A stretch of DNA of 39,767 nt from a phage: the sequence record PV935351.1; one strand, 5' to 3'. Position 1 is the stretch's first letter; each line of letters opens with the position of its first letter. Below, in pieces: positions 1,809 through 37,108 of the stretch. The position numbers and the translations under genes are program-made. The notes under the pieces were generated by a model. The model was not told where the DNA came from. It was given only the letters and a program-made list of their open reading frames with translations, and did no database searches.

Positions 1809-1913
1809 ATGAGTACTGCAATCATCTGGACCATCTCTGGCTTCGTAGCGTGGGGAATGTTTACTCTAGTCTGCAAACTACCGGTCCTTACTCAACTGTT
1901 ATGGGGCTTATGA
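1809..1913 (+). CDS. hypothetical small hydrophobic peptide
   Basis: 34 aa MSTAIIWTISGFVAWGMFTLVCKLPVLTQLLWGL, one predicted TM helix, AGGA upstream. Confidence 0.3.
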   Translation: MSTAIIWTISGFVAWGMFTLVCKLPVLTQLLWGL

Positions 1914-18466: not shown

Positions 18467-20035
18467 ATGGCTGAACGTGAAGGGTTCGCTGCTGAAGGAG
18501 CCAAAGCGGTCTATGACCGCCTGAAGAACGGTAGACAGCCATATGAGACACGCGCTCAGAATTGTGCTGCTGTCACTATCCCGTCACTGTTTCCTAAGGA
18601 GTCCGACAACTCGTCTACTGAGTACACCACTCCGTGGCAAGCTGTAGGTGCTCGCTGTTTGAACAACTTGGCTGCAAAGCTGATGTTGGCGTTATTCCCT
18701 CAGTCACCGTGGATGCGACTTACAGTCTCCGAATATGAGGCTAAGACCTTGAGTCAGGACTCAGAGGCTGCTGCTCGTGTTGACGAGGGGCTTGCTATGG
18801 TCGAGCGTGTGTTGATGGCCTACATGGAGACAAACAGTTTCCGTGTGCCATTGTTCGAAGCTCTGAAACAGCTTATAGTCTCCGGTAACTGTCTGCTCTA
18901 CATTCCAGAGCCTGAACAGGGAACCTACAGTCCCATGCGAATGTACCGCTTAGTGTCTTACGTTGTTCAACGTGATGCGTTCGGTAACATCTTGCAGATT
19001 GTGACTCTCGACAAGGTAGCGTTTAGTGCTCTACCGGAAGACGTGAAGTCTCAACTCAACGCAGACGACTATGAGCCTGACACCGAGCTGGAAGTGTATA
19101 CGCACATTTACCGTCAGGACGACGAATATCTACGCTACGAGGAAGTGGAAGGCATTGAGGTAGCAGGGACCGATGGTTCTTACCCACTGACTGCCTGTCC
19201 ATACATCCCGGTACGAATGGTTCGACTGGACGGTGAAGACTATGGTCGCTCTTATTGCGAGGAGTATCTGGGAGACCTGAACTCGCTGGAGACGATTACA
19301 GAAGCTATCACCAAAATGGCTAAGGTAGCCTCCAAGGTGGTGGGCCTCGTTAACCCGAACGGTATCACGCAACCTCGTCGTCTGAACAAGGCGGCTACAG
19401 GTGAGTTCGTGGCTGGTCGCGTTGAGGACATCAACTTCCTGCAACTGACGAAAGGTCAGGACTTTACGATTGCCAAGTCGGTGGCTGATGCTATCGAGCA
19501 ACGTTTAGGCTGGGCCTTCCTTCTTAATAGTGCTGTTCAGCGTAATGCCGAGCGAGTCACTGCTGAAGAGATTCGTTACGTTGCTGGTGAACTGGAGGCG
19601 ACCTTAGGTGGCGTGTACTCTGTACAGTCACAAGAGCTTCAGTTACCTATCGTCCGTGTGCTGATGAACCAACTTCAGTCTGCTGGCATGATTCCTGACC
19701 TTCCGAAAGAAGCGGTTGAGCCTACGGTATCCACTGGTCTGGAAGCGTTAGGTCGTGGTCAGGACTTGGAGAAGCTAACTCAGGCAGTCAACATGATGAC
19801 CGGGCTACAGCCTCTGCAACAGGACCCAGACATTAACTTGCCCACCCTTAAGCTGCGACTGCTGAATGCCTTAGGCATTGATACTGCTGGTCTTCTGCTG
19901 ACTCAGGACGAAAAGATGCAACGTATTGCTGAACAATCCGCTCAAGGAGCTGTGGTCAACGGTGCGTCTGCTGCTGGTGCTAATATGGGCGCTGCTGTAG
20001 GTCAGGGAGCTGGTGAGGACATGGCTCAAGCCTAA
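18467..20035 (+). CDS. 8: head-to-tail connector (portal) protein
   Basis: 522 aa; PYETRAQNCA, TPWQAVGAR, YRLVSYVVQRDAFGN, ACPYIPVRMVRLDGEDYGRSY match recalled T7 gp8. Confidence 0.97.
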   Translation: MAEREGFAAEGAKAVYDRLKNGRQPYETRAQNCAAVTIPSLFPKESDNSSTEYTTPWQAVGARCLNNLAAKLMLALFPQSPWMRLTVSEYEAKTLSQDSEAAARVDEGLAMVERVLMAYMETNSFRVPLFEALKQLIVSGNCLLYIPEPEQGTYSPMRMYRLVSYVVQRDAFGNILQIVTLDKVAFSALPEDVKSQLNADDYEPDTELEVYTHIYRQDDEYLRYEEVEGIEVAGTDGSYPLTACPYIPVRMVRLDGEDYGRSYCEEYLGDLNSLETITEAITKMAKVASKVVGLVNPNGITQPRRLNKAATGEFVAGRVEDINFLQLTKGQDFTIAKSVADAIEQRLGWAFLLNSAVQRNAERVTAEEIRYVAGELEATLGGVYSVQSQELQLPIVRVLMNQLQSAGMIPDLPKEAVEPTVSTGLEALGRGQDLEKLTQAVNMMTGLQPLQQDPDINLPTLKLRLLNALGIDTAGLLLTQDEKMQRIAEQSAQGAVVNGASAAGANMGAAVGQGAGEDMAQA

Positions 20036-20131: not shown

Positions 20132-21016
20132 ATGTCTCAATCAGTTTATGCCGAGTTCGGCGTTAGCTCTAATGCAATCACTGGTTCCGTTGAGGACCTG
20201 AACGAACACCAGAAGTCTATGCTTGAACAGGACGTAGCTGTTCGTGATGGCGATGACGCTATTACCTTCAAGCAACTGGAAGCCGAAAACGAAGAGGCGA
20301 CCGAAGAAGACGAGAACGTCGAAGAGACTGAGGGTGCTGAAGACAACGAGTCCGATGACGAAGAGTCTGAGACCGATGGTGAGCAGCCTGAGTTCATCGA
20401 ACTAGGTGATGCACCGAAAGAGCTTACCGAAAGTGTCACCGCTCTGGATGAAAACGAAGCTGCATTTGACGACATGGTGTCTTCTGCTGTAGAAGCTGGC
20501 AAGGTCACTGCTGATGAAATTACCGCTATCAAGGCTGAATACGCCAAGGACGGTAAGCTGTCTGACGCATCCTACGCTAAGTTGCAGGAAGCAGGTTACA
20601 CCAAGCGTTTCGTAGATTCGTTTGTCCGTGGTCAGGAAGCTCTTGCTGAACAGTATGCTGCTGGTGTGGTTCGCTACGCTGGTGGTGCTGAACAGTTTAA
20701 TCGCATCCTGTCACACCTTGAGTCCAACGACCCGTCAACTCGTGAAGCACTGGAAGCTGCTATCGTTCGTAAGGACATTGCGACTACCAAAGCTCTGCTG
20801 AATCTGGCTGGCAAGACTCTGGGTAAAGCTGTGGGTGTTAAACCTCAGCGTACCATCACCACTCAGGCTAAACCTGTGGTCGCACCTAAGGCTCCTCAGA
20901 CCGAAGCATTCAGCTCCAAGGCTGACATGATTAAGGCTATGAGTGACCCGCGATACCTGCGTGACGCTAAGTACACGATGGAAGTTCGCGCTAAGGTAGC
21001 TGCCTCAAGCCTGTAG
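20132..21016 (+). CDS. 9: capsid assembly (scaffolding) protein
   Basis: 294 aa, highly acidic; FGV, VAVRDGDDAI, GYTKRFVDSFVRGQEAL, KAMSDPRY match recalled T7 gp9. Confidence 0.95.
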   Translation: MSQSVYAEFGVSSNAITGSVEDLNEHQKSMLEQDVAVRDGDDAITFKQLEAENEEATEEDENVEETEGAEDNESDDEESETDGEQPEFIELGDAPKELTESVTALDENEAAFDDMVSSAVEAGKVTADEITAIKAEYAKDGKLSDASYAKLQEAGYTKRFVDSFVRGQEALAEQYAAGVVRYAGGAEQFNRILSHLESNDPSTREALEAAIVRKDIATTKALLNLAGKTLGKAVGVKPQRTITTQAKPVVAPKAPQTEAFSSKADMIKAMSDPRYLRDAKYTMEVRAKVAASSL

Positions 21017-21017
21017 G

Positions 21018-21040
21018 ACTAAACTATCACTATAGGGAGA
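21018..21040 (+). promoter_or_regulatory. phage RNAP promoter for the major capsid gene (phi10-like)
   Basis: CTAAACTATCACTATAGGGAGACC; +1 to +8 GGGAGACC as in T7 phi10; leader stem GGGAGACC / GGTTCCCC; RBS AGGAGA...CATATG. Confidence 0.9.
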
Positions 21041-21142
21041 CCAAGAGAAAGACTCAAGGTTCCCCTATTACTTCAGTCCATACGGATTGGGCGTACAGTA
21101 AGTAATATACTTTATCTTTCAATTGAATAGGAGAATTATCAT

Positions 21143-22186
21143 ATGGCAAACGTTCCGGGTCAGAAAGTAGGTACAGACCAAGGCAAAGGTAAATCTGGTT
21201 CCGACGCTCTGGCGTTGTTCCTGAAGGTCTTTGCTGGCGAAGTCCTGACCGCATTCACTCGCCGCTCTGTAACTGCTGACAAGCATATTGTCCGTACCAT
21301 TCAGAACGGTAAGTCTGCTCAGTTCCCGGTCATGGGTCGCACCTCTGGTGTGTATCTGGCTCCGGGTGAGCGACTGTCCGATAAGCGTAAAGGTATCAAA
21401 CATACCGAGAAAAATATTACCATTGATGGTCTGCTGACTGCCGATGTGATGATTTTCGACATTGAAGACGCGATGAACCACTACGACGTGGCTGGCGAGT
21501 ATTCCAACCAGTTGGGTGAAGCTCTGGCTATCGCTGCTGATGGTGCGGTGCTGGCTGAAATGGCGATCCTGTGTAACCTCCCGGCTGCATCCAACGAGAA
21601 CATCGCTGGTCTGGGCACTGCGTCCGTACTGGAAGTTGGTAAGAAAGCTAACCTCGGCACCCCGGCTAAACTGGGTGAAGCAATCATTGGTCAACTGACC
21701 ATTGCTCGTGCGAAGCTGACCTCCAACTACGTTCCTGCTGGCGACCGTTACTTCTACACCACGCCTGACAACTACTCTGCGATCCTCGCTGCTCTGATGC
21801 CGAACGCTGCTAACTATGCTGCGCTGATTGACCCAGAGACTGGTAACATCCGTAACGTGATGGGCTTCGTTGTTGTTGAAGTTCCGCATCTGGTACAGGG
21901 TGGTGCAGGTGAGACCCGTGGTGAAGATGGTATCACTATCGCTTCCGGTCAGAAACACGCATTCCCGGCGACTGCTGCTGGCGACGTTAAAGTTGCTATG
22001 GACAACGTTGTTGGCCTGTTCTCTCACCGTTCTGCTGTGGGTACTGTGAAGCTGCGTGACTTGGCGCTGGAACGTGACCGTGACGTCGATGCTCAGGGCG
22101 ACCTGATTGTTGGTAAATACGCTATGGGTCACGGCGGTCTGCGTCCTGAAGCGGCTGGCGCACTGGTTTTCAGTCCAGCGTCGTAA
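21143..22186 (+). CDS. 10: major capsid protein 10A
   Basis: 347 aa; DALALFLKVFAGEVLTAF, KSAQFPV, YLAPGE, KHTEKNITIDGLLTADV, DIEDAMNHYDV, LMPNAANYAALIDPE, HRSAVGTVKLRDLALER, KYAMGHGGLRPEAAGA match recalled T7 gp10A. Confidence 0.98.
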   Translation: MANVPGQKVGTDQGKGKSGSDALALFLKVFAGEVLTAFTRRSVTADKHIVRTIQNGKSAQFPVMGRTSGVYLAPGERLSDKRKGIKHTEKNITIDGLLTADVMIFDIEDAMNHYDVAGEYSNQLGEALAIAADGAVLAEMAILCNLPAASNENIAGLGTASVLEVGKKANLGTPAKLGEAIIGQLTIARAKLTSNYVPAGDRYFYTTPDNYSAILAALMPNAANYAALIDPETGNIRNVMGFVVVEVPHLVQGGAGETRGEDGITIASGQKHAFPATAAGDVKVAMDNVVGLFSHRSAVGTVKLRDLALERDRDVDAQGDLIVGKYAMGHGGLRPEAAGALVFSPAS

Positions 22187-22317
22187 GCACCTTTAGCCAA
22201 CCTAACGTCGCTACAGTAGCGGCTGTACCTGAAGAGGAGACTCTAACTCCTCAACAGAAAGCTGCGCGTACTCGTGCTGCGAACAGGGCCGCTAAACTGG
22301 CTGAGTCCAACAACTAA
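22165..22317 (+). CDS. 10: C-terminal extension of minor capsid protein 10B, reached by programmed -1 frameshift
   Basis: GGTTTTC (22165-22171), 5 codons before the 10A stop; the -1 frame stays open for 48 codons to TAA at 22315-22317. Confidence 0.6.
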   Translation, partial: GFQSSVVSTFSQPNVATVAAVPEEETLTPQQKAARTRAANRAAKLAESNN

Positions 22318-22321
22318 TTGA

Positions 22322-22361
22322 AACCCCTTGGGTGCCTTCGGGTGCTTGAGGGGTTTTTTTG
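22322..22361 (+). terminator. late terminator (Tphi-like)
   Basis: AACCCCTTGGG...CTTGAGGGGTTTTTTTG; GC-rich hairpin plus U7 tract, close to recalled T7 Tphi. Confidence 0.85.
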
Positions 22362-22373
22362 CTTAAAGTGAGG

Positions 22374-22469
22374 ATGATTATGTTTTACTTACTTACAGCC
22401 TTGGGACTATTTGTTAGTTTCTGGGCGATTATATTATTAACCGGACCATGCAGTCCTTACGACAGATAG
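22374..22469 (+). CDS. hypothetical small hydrophobic peptide between Tphi and gene 11
   Basis: 31 aa MIMFYLLTALGLFVSFWAIILLTGPCSPYDR; GTGAGGATG RBS; one predicted TM helix. Confidence 0.35.
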   Translation: MIMFYLLTALGLFVSFWAIILLTGPCSPYDR

Positions 22470-22477
22470 GAGGGAGT

Positions 22478-23044
22478 ATGGCTCAATACATTCCACTGAA
22501 TGCTAACGATGACTTAGACGCTATCAACGATATGTTAGCTGCTATCGGTGAACCGGCAGTCCTACAGCTTGACGAGGGGAACGCTGACGTCTCGAACGCC
22601 CAACGTATCCTGCATCGTGTCAATCGTCAGGTCCAAGCTAAAGGCTGGAACTTTAACATCAACGAAGCTGCTGTCCTGACACCTGATGTCCAAGACAATA
22701 GGATTCGATTCTTGCCGTCATACCTTCGTGTAATGACCGCTGGGGCCACCAGCTACTACAGCAACATGGGTGGATACCTGTACGACCTGTCCACTCAGTC
22801 GACCACTTTCACCGACCCTATCACGGTAGAGCTTGTGGAGATGAAGCCATTCTCAGAGATGCCTGTGGTCTTCAGGGACTACATCGTCACTAAAGCTAGC
22901 CGTGAGTTCAACGCTAAGTTCTTCGGTAGCCCAGAGTCTGAACTGTACCTTCGTGAGCAGGAAGCAGAACTCTATCAGCAGGTCATGGAATACGAGATGG
23001 ATACTGGTCGCTACAACATGATGTCCGACATTGGGAGAGACTAA
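22478..23044 (+). CDS. 11: tail tubular protein A
   Basis: 188 aa from ATG 22478 (AGGAGGGAG RBS); GEP, VMTAGATSYYSNMGGYLYD, IVTKASREFNAKFFG, EYEMD match recalled T7 gp11. Confidence 0.93.
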   Translation: MAQYIPLNANDDLDAINDMLAAIGEPAVLQLDEGNADVSNAQRILHRVNRQVQAKGWNFNINEAAVLTPDVQDNRIRFLPSYLRVMTAGATSYYSNMGGYLYDLSTQSTTFTDPITVELVEMKPFSEMPVVFRDYIVTKASREFNAKFFGSPESELYLREQEAELYQQVMEYEMDTGRYNMMSDIGRD

Positions 23045-25401
23045 TGCCACTAATTACTCAATCAATCAAGAACCTTAAGGGTGGCATTAGCCAACAGCCT
23101 GACATACTGAGGTTCTCAGACCAAGGCGAGTCACAGGTTAACTGCTGGTCATCAGAGAGTGATGGCCTCCAGAAGCGTCCACCTACAGTCTTCAAGCGAC
23201 GTCTTAACATCGACGTTGGGAGCAACCCTAAGTTCCACCTGATTAACCGTGATGAGCATGAGCAGTATTACATCGTGTTCAATGGGTCCAACATTCAGGT
23301 AGTTGACTTGAGTGGTAATCAATACTCAGTGTCAGGTGCGGTAGATTACGTTAAGTCCTCCAACCCACGAGATGACATCCGTGTCGTTACCGTGGCAGAC
23401 TATACGTTCGTCGTTAACCGTAAGGTTGTCGTCAAAGGTGGAAGCGAGAAGTCACACTCTGGTTATAACCGCAAAGCACGAGCTTTAATTAACCTGCGTG
23501 GTGGACAGTATGGTCGAACCCTTAAGGTGGGAATCAACGGTGGCGTTAAGGTATCGCATAAGCTACCAGCAGGTAATGATGCCGAGAATGACCCGCCTAA
23601 GGTGGACGCTCAAGCCATTGGTGCAGCTCTGAGAGACCTTCTTGTTACTGCCTACCCTACCTTCACGTTTGGCCTTGGGTCTGGATTCCTGCTAATCACA
23701 GCTCCTTCAGGGACCGATATTAACTCAGTGGAGACGGAGGATGGCTACGCTAACCAGCTAATAAGCCCAGTCCTAGACACTGTGCAGACAATCTCTAAGC
23801 TGCCTCTTGCGGCTCCAAATGGATACATCATTAAGATTCAAGGTGAGACCAACAGTAGCGCCGATGAATACTACGTGATGTATGACTCCAACACTAAGAC
23901 GTGGAAGGAGACAGTGGAGCCGGGAGTTGTCACTGGGTTCGATAACACCACAATGCCACACGCTCTGGTACGACAAGCTGATGGCTCCTTTGAGTTCAAG
24001 ACTCTGGATTGGTCCAAGCGTGGTTCTGGTAACGATGACACAAACCCTATGCCTAGCTTCGTGGATGCTGCGATTAATGATGTGTTCTTCTACAGGAACA
24101 GACTTGGGTTCTTGTCGGGTGAGAACGTAATCATGAGCCGTTCAGCCAGCTACTTTTCGTTCTTCCCTAAGAGTGTGGCGACACTGAGTGATGATGACCC
24201 TATTGATGTAGCTGTAAGTCACCCTCGAATCTCAATCCTTAAGTATGCCGTTCCGTTTAGCGAGCAGCTGCTACTTTGGTCGGATGAGGTTCAGTTCGTG
24301 ATGACAAGCTCTGGGGTCCTTACCTCGAAGTCTATCCAGCTTGATGTAGGCTCAGAGTTTGCCTTAGGCGACAATGCCAGACCGTTCGCTGTAGGACGCT
24401 CAGTCTTCTTCTCGGCTCCTCGTGGGTCATTCACCAGCATTAAGCGATACTTCGCTGTAGCTGATGTGTCTGATGTGAAGGATGCTGATGATACAACCGG
24501 TCACGTATTGTCCTACATCCCTAACGGGGTGTTTGATATTCAAGGTACAGGGACTGAGAACTACATCTGCGTCAACTCTACAGGTGCATACAACCGTATC
24601 TACATCTACAAGTTCTTGTTTAAGGATGGCGTACAACTTCAAGCCTCTTGGTCACACTGGGAGTTCCCTAAAGATGATAAGATTCTGGCGTCTGCCTCTA
24701 TTGGCTCTACCATGTTCATCGTTCGTCAGCATCAAGGAGGGGTAGACATTGAGCACCTTAAGTTCATCAAGGAGGCAACTGACTTCCCGTCAGAGCCATA
24801 TAGACTACACATTGACTCCAAGGTGTCTATGGTAATTCCAATTGGCTCATATAATGCTGACACCTATAAGACTACGGTTGACATTGGTGCTGCTTATGGT
24901 GGCAACGCTCCGTCTCCCGGTCGGTACTATCTGATTGACAGTCAGGGTGCTTATGTGGACCTTGGGGACTTGACCAGTATCTCTACTGTGATTACCCTCA
25001 ACGGCGATTGGTCAGGACGTACAGTGTTCATCGGACGGCCCTATCTGATGTCCTACAAGTTCTCACGGTTCCTGATTAAGATTGAAGATGATAGTGGCAC
25101 TCAGTCTGAAGACACTGGTCGTCTACAGCTTCGTCGGGCCTGGGTCAACTACAAGGACACTGGCGCTCTGAGACTCATTGTCAGAAACGGTGAGCGAGAG
25201 TTCGTTAACACCTTTAATGGGTACACCCTTGGTCAGCAAACCATAGGGACTACTAACATTGGTGACGGGCAGTATCGCTTCGCTATGAATGGTAACGCAT
25301 TAACCACGAGTCTAACCTTAGAGTCGGATTATCCTACCCCAGTGTCCATCGTTGGGTGTGGCTGGGAGGCGTCATACGCTAAGAAAGCTCGTTCCGTCTA
25401 A
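23044..25401 (+). CDS. 12: tail tubular protein B
   Basis: 785 aa; QSIKNLKGGISQQPDILR, HLINRDEHEQYY, VTVADYTFVVNR, RLQLRRAWVNY, GCGWE match recalled T7 gp12. Confidence 0.97.
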   Translation: MPLITQSIKNLKGGISQQPDILRFSDQGESQVNCWSSESDGLQKRPPTVFKRRLNIDVGSNPKFHLINRDEHEQYYIVFNGSNIQVVDLSGNQYSVSGAVDYVKSSNPRDDIRVVTVADYTFVVNRKVVVKGGSEKSHSGYNRKARALINLRGGQYGRTLKVGINGGVKVSHKLPAGNDAENDPPKVDAQAIGAALRDLLVTAYPTFTFGLGSGFLLITAPSGTDINSVETEDGYANQLISPVLDTVQTISKLPLAAPNGYIIKIQGETNSSADEYYVMYDSNTKTWKETVEPGVVTGFDNTTMPHALVRQADGSFEFKTLDWSKRGSGNDDTNPMPSFVDAAINDVFFYRNRLGFLSGENVIMSRSASYFSFFPKSVATLSDDDPIDVAVSHPRISILKYAVPFSEQLLLWSDEVQFVMTSSGVLTSKSIQLDVGSEFALGDNARPFAVGRSVFFSAPRGSFTSIKRYFAVADVSDVKDADDTTGHVLSYIPNGVFDIQGTGTENYICVNSTGAYNRIYIYKFLFKDGVQLQASWSHWEFPKDDKILASASIGSTMFIVRQHQGGVDIEHLKFIKEATDFPSEPYRLHIDSKVSMVIPIGSYNADTYKTTVDIGAAYGGNAPSPGRYYLIDSQGAYVDLGDLTSISTVITLNGDWSGRTVFIGRPYLMSYKFSRFLIKIEDDSGTQSEDTGRLQLRRAWVNYKDTGALRLIVRNGEREFVNTFNGYTLGQQTIGTTNIGDGQYRFAMNGNALTTSLTLESDYPTPVSIVGCGWEASYAKKARSV

Positions 25402-25408
25402 CTTATTG

Positions 25409-25458
25409 AAGGGCCTATAGATTTACCTTAACTATCACTATAGGGACTATAGGCCCTT
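25409..25458 (+). other. 12-bp perfect inverted repeat enclosing the gene 13 promoter (candidate RNase III site)
   Basis: AAGGGCCTATAG (25409-25420) / CTATAGGCCCTT (25447-25458), 26-nt loop containing promoter positions -17 to +3. Confidence 0.6.
25426..25448 (+). promoter_or_regulatory. phage RNAP promoter
   Basis: CCTTAACTATCACTATAGGGAC, +1 G at 25443. Confidence 0.8.
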
Positions 25459-32771: not shown

Positions 32772-35700
32772 ATGTCCACGATTACACAATTCCCTTCAGG
32801 AAACACTCAGTACAGGATTGAGTTCGACTACCTAGCCAGAACGTTTGTGGTTGTTACGCTGGTGAATAGCTCTAACCCTACCATGAACCGTGTACTGGAA
32901 GTTGGTCGAGATTACCGATTCCTTAATCCAACGATGATTGAGATGTTGGTTGACCAATCAGGTTTCGACATCGTTCGTATTCACCGTCAGACTGGAACTG
33001 ACTTAGTGGTAGACTTCAGGAATGGCTCAGTGTTGACAGCTAGTGACCTGACCAATTCAGAGCTTCAGGCTATCCATATTGCAGAAGAAGGTCGAGACCA
33101 AACGGTTGACTTAGCGAAGGAATATGCCGATGCTGCTAGTAGCTCTGCTGGCAACGCTAAGGATAGCGAGGACGAAGCACGACGAATCGCTGAGAGTATC
33201 AGGGAAGCTGGTCTAATTGGCTATATTACCCGTCGCTCCTTCGAGAAAGGCTACAACGTTACAACATGGAGCGAGGTCCTGCTATGGGAAGAGGATGGTG
33301 ATTATTACCGCTGGGATGGTACGCTTCCAAAGAACGTTCCTGCTGGTTCAACTCCTGAAACTTCCGGTGGGATTGGATTAGGTGCGTGGGTTAGTGTTGG
33401 TGATGCTGCTTTAAGAAGTCAGATTTCAAACCCGGAGGGGGCAATACTCTACCCTGAATTACATAGAGCACGCTGGCTTGATGAAAAAGATGTGCGTGGT
33501 TGGGGTGCTAAAGGGGATGGTGTCACTGATGATACAGCAGCGTTAACGAGCGCATTAAGCGCCACACCTGTTGGACAAAAGGTTAATGGCAATGGGAAGA
33601 CATATAAGGTCACATCACTTCCTGACATTAGTCGCTTCATCAACACTCGTTTCGTTTATGAGCGCATTCCCGGACAACCTCTTTATTATGCCTCTGAAGA
33701 ATTTGTTCAGGGTGAGCTATTCAAAATAACTGACACCCCTTATTACAATGCGTGGCCTCAGGATAAAGCGTTCGTATATGAGAATGTGATATATGCACCT
33801 TACATGGGTAGCGATCGTCATGGTGTTAGTCGTCTGCATGTATCATGGGTTAAGTCTGGTGATGACGGTCAAACATGGTCTACTCCAGAGTGGTTAACTG
33901 ATCTGCATCCAGATTACCCTACAGTGAACTATCATTGTATGAGTATGGGTGTATGTCGCAACCGTCTGTTTGCCATGATTGAAACACGTACTTTAGCCAA
34001 GAACGCATTAACCAATTGTGCATTGTGGGATCGCCCCATGTCTCGTAGCCTGCATCTTACTGGTGGTATCACTAAAGCTGCAAATCAGCAATATGCAACA
34101 ATACATGTACCAGACCACGGACTATTCGTTGGTGATTTTGTTAACTTCTCTAATTCTGCGGTAACAGGTGTCTCCGGTGACATGACTGTTGCAACCGTAA
34201 TAGATAAGGACAACTTCACGGTTCTTACACCCAACCAGCAGACTTCAGATTTGAATAACGCTGGAAAGAATTGGCACATGGGTACTTCTTTCCATAAGTC
34301 GCCATGGCGTAAGACAGACCTTGGTCTAATCCCTCGTGTCACAGAGGTGCATAGCTTTGCTACTATTGATAACAATGGCTTTGTTATGGGTTATCATCAA
34401 GGCGATGTAGCTCCATGCGAAGTTGGACTTTTCTATTTCCCTGACGCTTTCAATAGCCCATCTAGTTATGTTCGTCGTCAGATACCATCTGAGTATGAAC
34501 CAGATGCGTCAGAGCCGTGCATCAAGTACTATGACGGTGTATTATACCTTATCACTCGTGGCACTCGTGGGGATAGACTGGGTAGCTCTTTGCATCGTAG
34601 TAGAGACATAGGTCAGACTTGGGAGTCGCTGAGATTTCCACATAATGTTCATCATACTACATTACCTTTTGCTAAAGTAGGGGATGACCTTATTATGTTT
34701 GGTTCAGAACGTGCAGAAAATGAATGGGAAGAAGGTGCGCAAGATGATCGTTACAAGGCATCTTATCCTCGCACCTTCTATGCACGCTTGAATGTAAACA
34801 ATTGGAATGCAGACGATATTGAATGGGTTAACATCACTGACCAGATTTATCAGGGCGGAATAGTTAACTCAGGTGTAGGCGTTGGTTCGGTAGTTGTGAA
34901 GGATAGTTACATCTACTACATGTTTGGTGGAGAGGACCATTTTAACCCATGGTCATATGGAGATAACTCAGCGAAGGATCCATTCAAAGCAGATGGTCAT
35001 CCCTCAGATTTGTATTGCTACAAAATGAAGATTGGCCCAGACAATCGTGTTTCAAGGGATTTCAGGTATGGTGCTGTACCTAACAGAGCTGTTCCCGTGT
35101 TTTTTGATACGAATGGGATTCGCACTGTTCCTGCGCCAATTGAATTTACAGGGGATTTAGGTTTAGGTCATGTGACCATTAGAGCCAGCACCAGTAGTAA
35201 CATTCGCTCTGAAGTTTTAATGGAAGGTGAATATGGGTTTATCGGAAAATCTATACCGACTGATAACCCGGCAGGGCAGCGCACTATATTTTGCGGAGGC
35301 GACAGTACCAGTTCTTCTTCTGGTGCACAGATTACGCTTTATGGTGCAAATAACACCGACTCAAAGCGAATAGTTTACAATGGTGCTGAGCATCTGTTCC
35401 AGACTGCTGACGTTAAGCCTTATAACGATAACGTCACTGCGCTTGGTGGGCCTAGCAACCGTTTCACCACTGCATACCTCGGAAGCAACCCTATTGTTAC
35501 TTCTAACGGGGAGAGGAAAACAGAGCCGGTAGTTTTTGATGATGCTTTCCTTGATGCCTGGGGTGATGTTCACTACATCATGTACCAGTGGTTGGATGCT
35601 GTTCAACTGAAAGGCAATGATGCTCGTATTCACTTCGGTGTTATTGCTCAGCAAATTCGTGATGTATTCATTGCGCATGGTCTGATGGACGAAAACAGTA

Positions 35701-35966
35701 CGAATTGTCGTTATGCTGTTCTGTGCTATGACAAGTATCCACGGATGACCGATACGGTATTTTCGCACAATGAAATCATTGAACACACTGACGAGGAGGG
35801 TAATGTCACTACTACGGAAGAACCTGTATACACCGAGGTGGTTATTCACGAAGAGGGTGAGGAGTGGGGTGTTCGGCCTGACGGAATTTTCTTTGCTGAA
35901 GCCGCTTATCAGAGAAGAAAACTGGAAAGAATCGAAGCCAGACTTTCTGCTCTTGAACAGAAGTAA
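32772..35966 (+). CDS. 17: tailspike endosialidase (endo-N-acetylneuraminidase) with gp17-like N-terminal adaptor and C-terminal chaperone domain
   Basis: 1064 aa; N-terminus MSTITQFPSGNTQYRIEFDYLARTF... is gp17-like; two Asp-boxes SGDDGQTW and SRDIGQTW; matches the endoNF precursor of phage K1F as I recall it; AT-richer from about 33420. Confidence 0.92.
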   Translation: MSTITQFPSGNTQYRIEFDYLARTFVVVTLVNSSNPTMNRVLEVGRDYRFLNPTMIEMLVDQSGFDIVRIHRQTGTDLVVDFRNGSVLTASDLTNSELQAIHIAEEGRDQTVDLAKEYADAASSSAGNAKDSEDEARRIAESIREAGLIGYITRRSFEKGYNVTTWSEVLLWEEDGDYYRWDGTLPKNVPAGSTPETSGGIGLGAWVSVGDAALRSQISNPEGAILYPELHRARWLDEKDVRGWGAKGDGVTDDTAALTSALSATPVGQKVNGNGKTYKVTSLPDISRFINTRFVYERIPGQPLYYASEEFVQGELFKITDTPYYNAWPQDKAFVYENVIYAPYMGSDRHGVSRLHVSWVKSGDDGQTWSTPEWLTDLHPDYPTVNYHCMSMGVCRNRLFAMIETRTLAKNALTNCALWDRPMSRSLHLTGGITKAANQQYATIHVPDHGLFVGDFVNFSNSAVTGVSGDMTVATVIDKDNFTVLTPNQQTSDLNNAGKNWHMGTSFHKSPWRKTDLGLIPRVTEVHSFATIDNNGFVMGYHQGDVAPCEVGLFYFPDAFNSPSSYVRRQIPSEYEPDASEPCIKYYDGVLYLITRGTRGDRLGSSLHRSRDIGQTWESLRFPHNVHHTTLPFAKVGDDLIMFGSERAENEWEEGAQDDRYKASYPRTFYARLNVNNWNADDIEWVNITDQIYQGGIVNSGVGVGSVVVKDSYIYYMFGGEDHFNPWSYGDNSAKDPFKADGHPSDLYCYKMKIGPDNRVSRDFRYGAVPNRAVPVFFDTNGIRTVPAPIEFTGDLGLGHVTIRASTSSNIRSEVLMEGEYGFIGKSIPTDNPAGQRTIFCGGDSTSSSSGAQITLYGANNTDSKRIVYNGAEHLFQTADVKPYNDNVTALGGPSNRFTTAYLGSNPIVTSNGERKTEPVVFDDAFLDAWGDVHYIMYQWLDAVQLKGNDARIHFGVIAQQIRDVFIAHGLMDENSTNCRYAVLCYDKYPRMTDTVFSHNEIIEHTDEEGNVTTTEEPVYTEVVIHEEGEEWGVRPDGIFFAEAAYQRRKLERIEARLSALEQK

Positions 35967-36658: not shown

Positions 36659-37108
36659 ATGCTCGAATTTTTAAAGAGAGCGGCTCCGTGGTTACTTGCA
36701 GCAGTGATGTTTGCTGGTGGCTACCACACCGCTAACAATAAGTGGGAGGCTAAGGTCAATGCAGAATACACCTCGAATCTTAAGGCATCGGAAGATACAA
36801 GGCTTGCTGTCCAAGCTGAAGTCAACAAAGTGTCCAAACGGTTTCAGGACGAAATGTCCTCGCTGGAAGGCAGCACTGATAGGATTATTGCTGACCTTAA
36901 GTCTGACAATAAGCGGCTGCTCATCCGAGTCAAACCTACGAGTGGAACCACGCAAAGTGACGGTCGATGCTTCATTGATGGTTACGCCGAACTTGACGAA
37001 CGAGATGCTAAACGTCTTATCACCATCGGAGTGAAAGGAGACAAGTGGATTAAGGCCCTTCAAGACACTGTGATAGCCTTACAGCAAGAGAAGGAGGTGA
37101 CGCATTGA
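36659..37108 (+). CDS. 18.5: i-spanin (Rz-like)
   Basis: 149 aa; N-terminal TM helix ([14 protein letters not shown]), coiled-coil periplasmic region. Confidence 0.9.
36759..37034 (+). CDS. 18.7: o-spanin (Rz1-like lipoprotein) embedded in the +1 frame of gene 18.5
   Basis: About 91 aa; lipobox LTISGC; PRWKAALIG...SGC..SES...VDASLMV.PNLT.EMLNV matches recalled T7 gp18.7. Confidence 0.85.
   Translation: MQNTPRILRHRKIQGLLSKLKSTKCPNGFRTKCPRWKAALIGLLLTLSLTISGCSSESNLRVEPRKVTVDASLMVTPNLTNEMLNVLSPSE

Follow-up and report, generated by a model that had tools for sequence, protein, structure and literature searches.

A K1F-like T7-type phage carries, between its late terminator and gene 11, an optional small gene that probably encodes a 29-residue single-helix membrane peptide

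Positions 22380-22469 of the phage genome analyzed here almost certainly form a real, optional phage gene encoding a membrane peptide of 29 residues with one predicted helix, a conclusion drawn from comparison of related sequences. The window, by which we mean the whole stretch of DNA analyzed (sequence record PV935351.1, 39,767 nt), is a complete T7-type phage genome with terminal repeats of 204 bp. In our best explanation, which we consider probable, the ORF is an optional gene of K1F-like phages that is expressed late by read-through of a terminator, and its product is an accessory inner-membrane peptide that interacts with the host.

Genomic setting

Based on nucleotide similarity, the window belongs to Kayfunavirus (K1F/EcoDS1 group), and its region 22150-22650 has 97-99% identity to phages phiYIO1-1, vB_EcoP_F, LNA3, BUCT788, and KM02. 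A 1064-aa tail spike ORF (32772-35966, + strand) presumably resembles a K1F-type endosialidase, and such a tail spike suggests a phage specific for the K1 capsule. The features that surround the small ORF, together with the lysis genes, are listed in Table 1; a gp19.5-like membrane protein is also encoded elsewhere in the window.

Copies of the phage promoter consensus occur at 20027 (before gene 9), 21014 (before gene 10), and 25422-25451 (after gene 12). Near the end of gene 10A, a T7-type -1 slippery heptamer, GGTTTTC, occupies 22165-22171, and frameshifting at this heptamer likely produces a 10B minor capsid form; the EcoDS1 record labels the stretch matching the 10B-like extension as "region of similarity to gp10B." The terminator matching 22320-22360 is annotated in both EcoDS1 and ASO2B.

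Among close relatives (L009-L034, from IMG/VR), the stretch from the 10A stop to the terminator is a swap site, at which some relatives have a 10B-like tail and others have a different ORF ending in ...SFNVSFTN. One relative (L015) has an HNH-like ORF and lacks a terminator upstream of gene 11.

A second small hydrophobic ORF lies in the early region of the window (1809-1913, + strand; 34 aa, MSTAIIWTISGFVAWGMFTLVCKLPVLTQLLWGL). It is kept in ~37 Kayfunavirus-type records, with identity down to 47% for the copy in Citrobacter phage CR8, which bears the annotation "gene 0.705."

Table 1. Features of the window around the small ORF, and the lysis genes.
Feature	Position	Strand	Basis
Phage-RNAP promoter copy, consensus CTAAACTATCACTATAGG, 5' of capsid gene	21014-21043	+	Direct-repeat family D1
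Gene 10A, major capsid protein, 347 aa	21143-22186	+	ORF list; phrog_267 major head protein, E 1.6e-101
10B-like extension, -1 frame, ~50 codons to TAA 22315-22317	22165-22317	+	Translation
Tphi-like intrinsic terminator, 17-pair hairpin and 7-T run	22320-22360	+	Terminator scan, RNA fold
Shine-Dalgarno GAGG of small ORF, 6 nt 5' of ATG 22380	22370-22373	+	Sequence; homologues
ATG ATT, two extra in-frame codons counted in the earlier note	22374-22379	+	
Small ORF, 29 codons and TAG, MFYLLTALGLFVSFWAIILLTGPCSPYDR	22380-22469	+	
Shine-Dalgarno AGGAGG of gene 11, overlapping small-ORF TAG 22467-22469	22468-22473	+	Sequence
Gene 11, tail tubular protein A / tail adaptor, 188 aa	22478-23044	+	phrog_446 tail protein, E 7.9e-68; relatives' annotation
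Gene 12	23044-25401		
Holin, 65 aa	36100-36297		phrog_920
Spanins, Rz-like	36659-37108		

Start codon and position of the small ORF

An earlier note on this DNA had described a 31-aa ORF with a GAGG ribosome-binding site. The frame, which is ATG-initiated and runs to the TAG at 22467-22469, stands, as does the GAGG; the start probably moves to 22380, which would make the ORF 29 aa long. The GAGG abuts the ATG at 22374 (spacer 0 nt) but precedes the ATG at 22380 by 6 nt, which makes the latter the likelier start; judging from the sequence, ATG 22374 is probably not used. Every homologue elsewhere begins at the position equivalent to 22380, with GGAGG 5-7 nt upstream of that ATG, and in a close variant (L019, GAGGAGACTTATG) there is no ATG upstream of it. 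A product of 29 aa, rather than 31, is therefore the most likely.

The same note was right to place the ORF directly after a Tphi-like terminator, as the ORF begins ~20 nt past the hairpin and its run of seven T residues. It was also right that T7 has no annotated gene here: in T7-like and other Studiervirinae loci, 15-40 nt separate the terminator from gene 11, and they contain no ORF.

A family of four sequence types

Using tblastn, we identified the small ORF in 81 phage records. Representatives of these records were compared, and the family comprises 19 distinct nucleotide sequences of four types. Type A (the window group, Kayfunavirus) has the sequence MFYLLTALGLFVSFWAIILLTGPCSPYDR, with variants that include MCYLLIALGLFVSFWVTMLLTGPCSPYDR; type B, found in other Kayfunavirus, is MFLIYTGLALFVLFWAYLLPSSPSSPYDR; type P, found in six Przondovirus Klebsiella phages, is MFIVLSAVSLAVATMLYVVVTGPCSPYDK; and type M, found in 17 Klebsiella/Proteus Molineuxvirinae with genomes of 44-46 kb, is MYYLLCVTLLLFASFWCYVLATGPVSVAERRDNANSK. 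All four types share a layout in which a terminator-like hairpin is followed by a Shine-Dalgarno (SD) sequence, the ORF, a second SD sequence, and the tail tubular A gene. The order terminator, ORF, gene 11 was seen in the window and in loci L001-L008 and L035-L043.

Several members of the family have features of their own. In ZG49 (L009), a type A ORF lies behind a different hairpin. Phage 22664UKE3-2 (L038, 701-796) has a type B ORF with a frameshifted tail (...SPSSPMTAKE vs. ...SPSSPYDR), in which the helix is kept and the conserved tail is lost. In Klebsiella phage cmc355D (L007, 701-814; type P), the cassette is flanked by the direct repeat GGAGGCTTTATG, and the SD-ATG of the ORF is identical to the SD-ATG of gene 11; the repeat may have been left by an insertion, or it could readily serve as a substrate for precise deletion. 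Two records, PV615262.1 (Acinetobacter phage vB_Aba_01KA) and MT350292.1 (Enterococcus phage EFA-1), are Kayfunavirus in the ORF region, with 89-97% identity; on this sequence evidence, their host labels look doubtful.

Searches beyond these phages returned little else. In a collection of 5.8 billion proteins, a search whose alignment was led by a 46-aa annotated form returned five entries only, all from these phages, and an exhaustive HMM scan of 1.84 billion protein representatives gave only three matches and no relative outside these phages. Pfam gave no significant family for the small ORF, and none of five variants representing types A, B, P, and M had a match in PHROGs. We found no match to the small ORF in 5,426 E. 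coli genomes and none in plasmids. When a degenerate DNA pattern was run against the genomes of 185,579 bacterial and archaeal species, all five matches proved on translation to be out-of-frame chance matches; the same pattern identified three more Kayfunavirus-type contigs from metagenomes. A relationship to a type I toxin or a host small membrane protein was considered and rejected, as no recognizable relatives turned up in the bacterial genomes and plasmids scanned.

A few GenBank records name the ORF "hypothetical protein," and the record of phage Pipis notes a single TMD for it; most carriers leave it unannotated. In the literature, we found no paper on a gene at this position and no relevant Ribo-seq of T7-type phages. 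On the strength of these searches, we regard the ORF as a previously uncharacterized, lineage-restricted phage microprotein gene that is in no described family.

Predicted features of the peptide

The predicted product has a transmembrane helix at residues 2-20, a helix break at T-G-P, and the polar tail CSPYDR. Its hydrophobic stretch has a KD mean of 2.3 over 19 residues, and residues 2-20 sum to -2.5 kcal/mol on the Hessa scale. AF2, run with a small alignment of the ORF family, modeled residues 2-22 of the 31-aa form as one helix (mean pLDDT 83), followed by a non-helical or disordered tail. A single strongly hydrophobic stretch on both scales, together with the AF2 helix, agrees with the earlier prediction of one transmembrane helix.

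Hessa sums of -1.3 to -3.0 predict membrane insertion for all four types, which follow a common pattern: M and an aromatic or aliphatic residue, a hydrophobic helix of ~19 residues, T/S-G/S-P, x-S, and a short polar tail, which in Studiervirinae is SPYD[RK]. Based on alignments and profile matches (E 4e-15 to 5e-11), the window ORF fits this pattern. The membrane orientation is ambiguous because the tail holds one D and one R/K. A periodicity test of helix conservation, based on few sequences, gave no clear peak near 100 degrees that would mark a binding face.

In types A and P, a Cys follows the hydrophobic stretch by a few residues, which would suit a lipoprotein or a peptide of the o-spanin kind, with processing at the Cys in ...LLTGPC.... 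We give this reading next to no credence. The lipobox [LVI][ASTVI][GAS]C does not match the LTGPC of the window, which has Pro at -1, where G, A, or S is needed; the Cys is replaced by Ser in type B and by Val in type M; the mature part would be just five residues long; and the window has a spanin pair of its own.

Conservation of the peptide

Between types A and B, 39-41 of 87-90 ORF nucleotides differ, and the 29 codons are kept exactly. These differences fall mainly on third codon positions (19, vs. 10 and 10 at the other two); pS is 0.84-0.96, so that silent sites are saturated, and pN is 0.31-0.35. The codons for SPYDR illustrate the pattern, reading AGT CCT TAC GAC AGA in type A and AGC CCC TAT GAC CGT/CGC in type B, with the arginine codon family switched between the two. 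The other two frames of the ORF are interrupted by stops. Across all types, 39-46 of 87 nucleotides differ (~45%), with pS of 0.56-0.96 vs. pN of 0.31-0.52, and frame, length, start, and stop are kept. An excess of silent over replacement changes, with frame and length kept, is the pattern of purifying selection.

Within types, dN/dS was 0.25 for A2 vs. A and 0.28 for the P variants; within-type values scatter from 0.1 to 1.6, resting on 1-6 changes, and type B pairs are too similar to be informative. We also compared peptide similarity with composition-preserving shuffles. The z score was 16 for A-B, 16 for A-P, and 13 for A-M, and in each of these comparisons none of 5,000 shuffles reached the observed score; across types, similarity was 9-16 SD above that of the shuffles.

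These comparisons bear on whether the ORF is a chance reading frame in a spacer, conserved through a nucleic-acid function (RNA structure, processing site, or relic promoter) or through recent common descent. The ORF is very short and unannotated in most records, and the T-rich tail of the upstream terminator favors hydrophobic codons, all of which speaks for a chance frame. The peptide features are kept, however, while the nucleotides are poorly conserved. Divergence between A and B phages is greatest in the ORF, and the flanks (terminator and gene 11 start) are nearly identical; a nucleic-acid element would be expected to show the reverse. Rfam matches were all sub-threshold and driven by the terminator, and RNA folding predicted nothing stable besides the terminator. 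A relic phage promoter was also considered and rejected: the sequence TACGACAGATAGGAGGGAG is vaguely T7-promoter-like, but the phage consensus has no copy there.

The earlier note had allowed that the ORF either encodes a small membrane peptide or arose by chance, and had proposed conservation of the ORF, rather than of the nucleotides alone, as a check. Such conservation was found. Frame, 29-codon length, helix, and polar tail are kept across two virus subfamilies with synonymous sites saturated, which supports the membrane peptide; the same peptide-level conservation across types largely refutes chance, which we consider very improbable.

Presence and absence among relatives

The region matches 221 phage records. 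About 60 Kayfunavirus-type records hold the ORF, and about three quarters of Kayfunavirus-type records lack it; among IMG/VR relatives found through gp11, it is present in 4 of 26. Further out in Studiervirinae, 56 loci (T7-, T3-, Berlin-like, and others) were examined, and none has a small hydrophobic ORF between the terminator and gene 11. In T3-like and Berlin-like loci (L106, L112, L118, L095, and L096), a phage-promoter-like AACCCTCACTAACAGGAGG or TAATAGACTCACTAATGGGAGG lies ~40 nt 5' of gene 11, which indicates that the junction between terminator and gene 11 is used differently across genera.

In relatives without the ORF, exactly 98 nt are missing, from the ATG of the ORF to the ATG of gene 11, so the SD sequence of the ORF then serves gene 11. 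This indel occurs in two SD contexts, AAAGTGAGAGGAGACTT-ATG (type A/L019) and TTAAGGAGGGCCT-ATG (type B), which implies at least two gain or loss events, or recombination. Phage ST31 (L013), for example, has a gp11 100% identical to that of the window and flanks that are ~98% identical, and it lacks the ORF. Because close relatives have lost or never gained the ORF via the 98-nt indel, it is dispensable in most hosts, and its absence from most relatives indicates that any benefit is conditional.

A more far-reaching reading, possible although we doubt it, is that the ORF and the second SD-ATG form a mobile micro-gene cassette that has been repeatedly gained, swapped, and lost in T7-type phages of Enterobacteriaceae, and that its product represents a new class of microprotein binding a conserved enterobacterial inner-membrane machine via the helix and SPYD(R/K) tail. 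Under such a reading, the T-rich tail of the terminator may have given rise to the gene de novo, and the peptide might, for example, reset the lysis clock or disarm a membrane-bound effector of abortive infection that capsid production triggers.

Expression and linkage to gene 11

We found no sigma-70-like site on the + strand and no phage promoter copy between the terminator and the ORF. With no promoter between that of gene 10 and the one after gene 12, the ORF would be transcribed solely by terminator read-through. Transcription would be late, on the fraction of transcripts that pass the Tphi-like terminator, and the ORF would share an mRNA with tail genes 11 and 12. In T7, read-through of Tphi is the sole route to expression of genes 11 and 12, and translational coupling between genes 10 and 11 has been proposed (PMC5592923).

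At its 3' end, the ORF stops within the ribosome-binding site of gene 11 (Table 1). Types B and P have an equivalent overlap of stop and SD sequence (TAAGGAG), and the type M ORF reaches into gene 11, with an overlap of 17 nt at its start. The ORF's own SD sequence and the overlap of its stop with that of gene 11 argue for efficient translation coupled to gene 11, and the two genes are probably translationally linked.

This arrangement is also the position expected of a leader or relay ORF, and a translation relay is the main rival to the peptide-based explanation. In a relay, translating a short ORF that ends in the SD sequence of gene 11 would set gp11/gp12 output, by termination-reinitiation or by melting of RNA structure on read-through transcripts, and the peptide would be a by-product. 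The overlaps in all four types, the direct joining of the same SD sequence to gene 11 in relatives without the ORF, and the coupling proposed for T7 genes 10 and 11 (PMC5592923) are all consistent with this. However, a relay needs no particular peptide and would leave it free to drift, whereas the length, helix, T/S-G/S-P, and SPYD(R/K) have been kept through saturated silent sites and across subfamilies, even with the arginine codon family switched. In addition, most relatives express gene 11 without the ORF. We therefore consider a relay quite unlikely.

Proposed role of the peptide

We favor an accessory inner-membrane peptide. The product would have three parts: a helix from residue 2, a helix-breaking T/S-G/S-P, and an 8-residue polar tail ending in SPYD(R/K). 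It would insert into the host inner membrane late in infection, where the helix and conserved tail may act on a membrane component common to Enterobacteriaceae. The favored mechanism is that helix and tail bind a membrane protein of the host or phage. The patchy presence of the gene, its exchange among phage genera that infect Enterobacteriaceae, the strongly constrained, short Pro-rich tail, and the late timing fit an accessory inner-membrane factor rather than a virion or assembly part. Its role would thus lie in host interaction, such as tuning lysis timing or membrane energization or countering a membrane-bound defense, and not in virion building. Of the specific roles, tuning of the lysis clock and blocking of a membrane-bound defense effector seem the most plausible.

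As a specific version of this model, the peptide could build up in the inner membrane late in infection and either lower the proton-motive force or bind the gp17.5-type holin, thereby shifting the time at which the holin triggers. A single-helix membrane peptide expressed late, alongside morphogenesis genes, is compatible with such a function, and optional presence suits a tuning role. On the other hand, the ORF lies outside the lysis cassette of the window, which has its holin and spanins far downstream (Table 1), and it has no similarity to any lysis family; taken alone, this version is unlikely. The window has holin, spanin, and gp19.5-like genes elsewhere, so the ORF comes in addition to these and is not a lysis gene that has moved.

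The evolutionary support is unusually good for a gene of this length. Genes are gained and lost in the slot after the T7-type late terminator, which is usually deemed a fixed spacer. Natural near-isogenic pairs with and without the ORF (the window phage vs. ST31-type phages) allow direct tests of what the ORF does. Small membrane proteins of phages are overlooked systematically, and this ORF is absent from both Pfam and PHROGs; pipelines that annotate therapeutic K1F-like and Klebsiella phages should include it.

Comparison with known systems

Type I toxins and other small hydrophobic toxic peptides include TisB (29 aa), ShoB, Ibs, and DinQ. The ORF product is similar to these in length and hydrophobicity; however, it has no counterpart in the E. 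coli chromosome or plasmids and no evident antisense partner, and its conserved Pro-rich polar tail differs from those toxins.

The single-gene lysis proteins phiX174 E, MS2 L, and LysM (phage M, 37 aa) have one transmembrane helix, and the helix or tail blocks a host inner-membrane enzyme; phages with such proteins have no other lysis system. The ORF product is likewise a very short phage peptide with one transmembrane helix, but it has no homology to these proteins, the window phage has a holin and spanins, and the ORF is dispensable. It also resembles the class II holin of the T7 gp17.5 type (phrog_920) as a small late membrane protein of a T7-type phage. Assignment to this group was rejected, given that the ORF has no PHROG match, one helix rather than two, and a position outside the lysis cassette.

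Morons and other accessory membrane genes occur inside structural operons, as in HK97 (gp15) and in lambda-family phages. The small ORF is similar in being an extra, sporadic gene with a membrane product, located between two genes that are adjacent in relatives; as for a moron in the sense of Hendrix, relatives without it join the terminator and SD sequence straight to gene 11. Unlike morons, it occurs in a strictly lytic phage and is part of a late read-through transcript, and rather than having its own promoter and terminator, it has only the shared Tphi-like terminator upstream.

Bacteria have small single-helix membrane regulators of comparable size, namely MgtS (31 aa), MgtR (30 aa), PmrR (29 aa), KdpF (29 aa), and AcrZ (49 aa). 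The ORF product has no sequence similarity to these regulators and, unlike them, is encoded by a phage and expressed late in the lytic cycle. It is like them in its length of ~30 aa, in having one helix with a few polar residues at one of the ends, and in lacking enzymatic potential, and, as for those regulators, its presumed action would be to bind a larger membrane protein.
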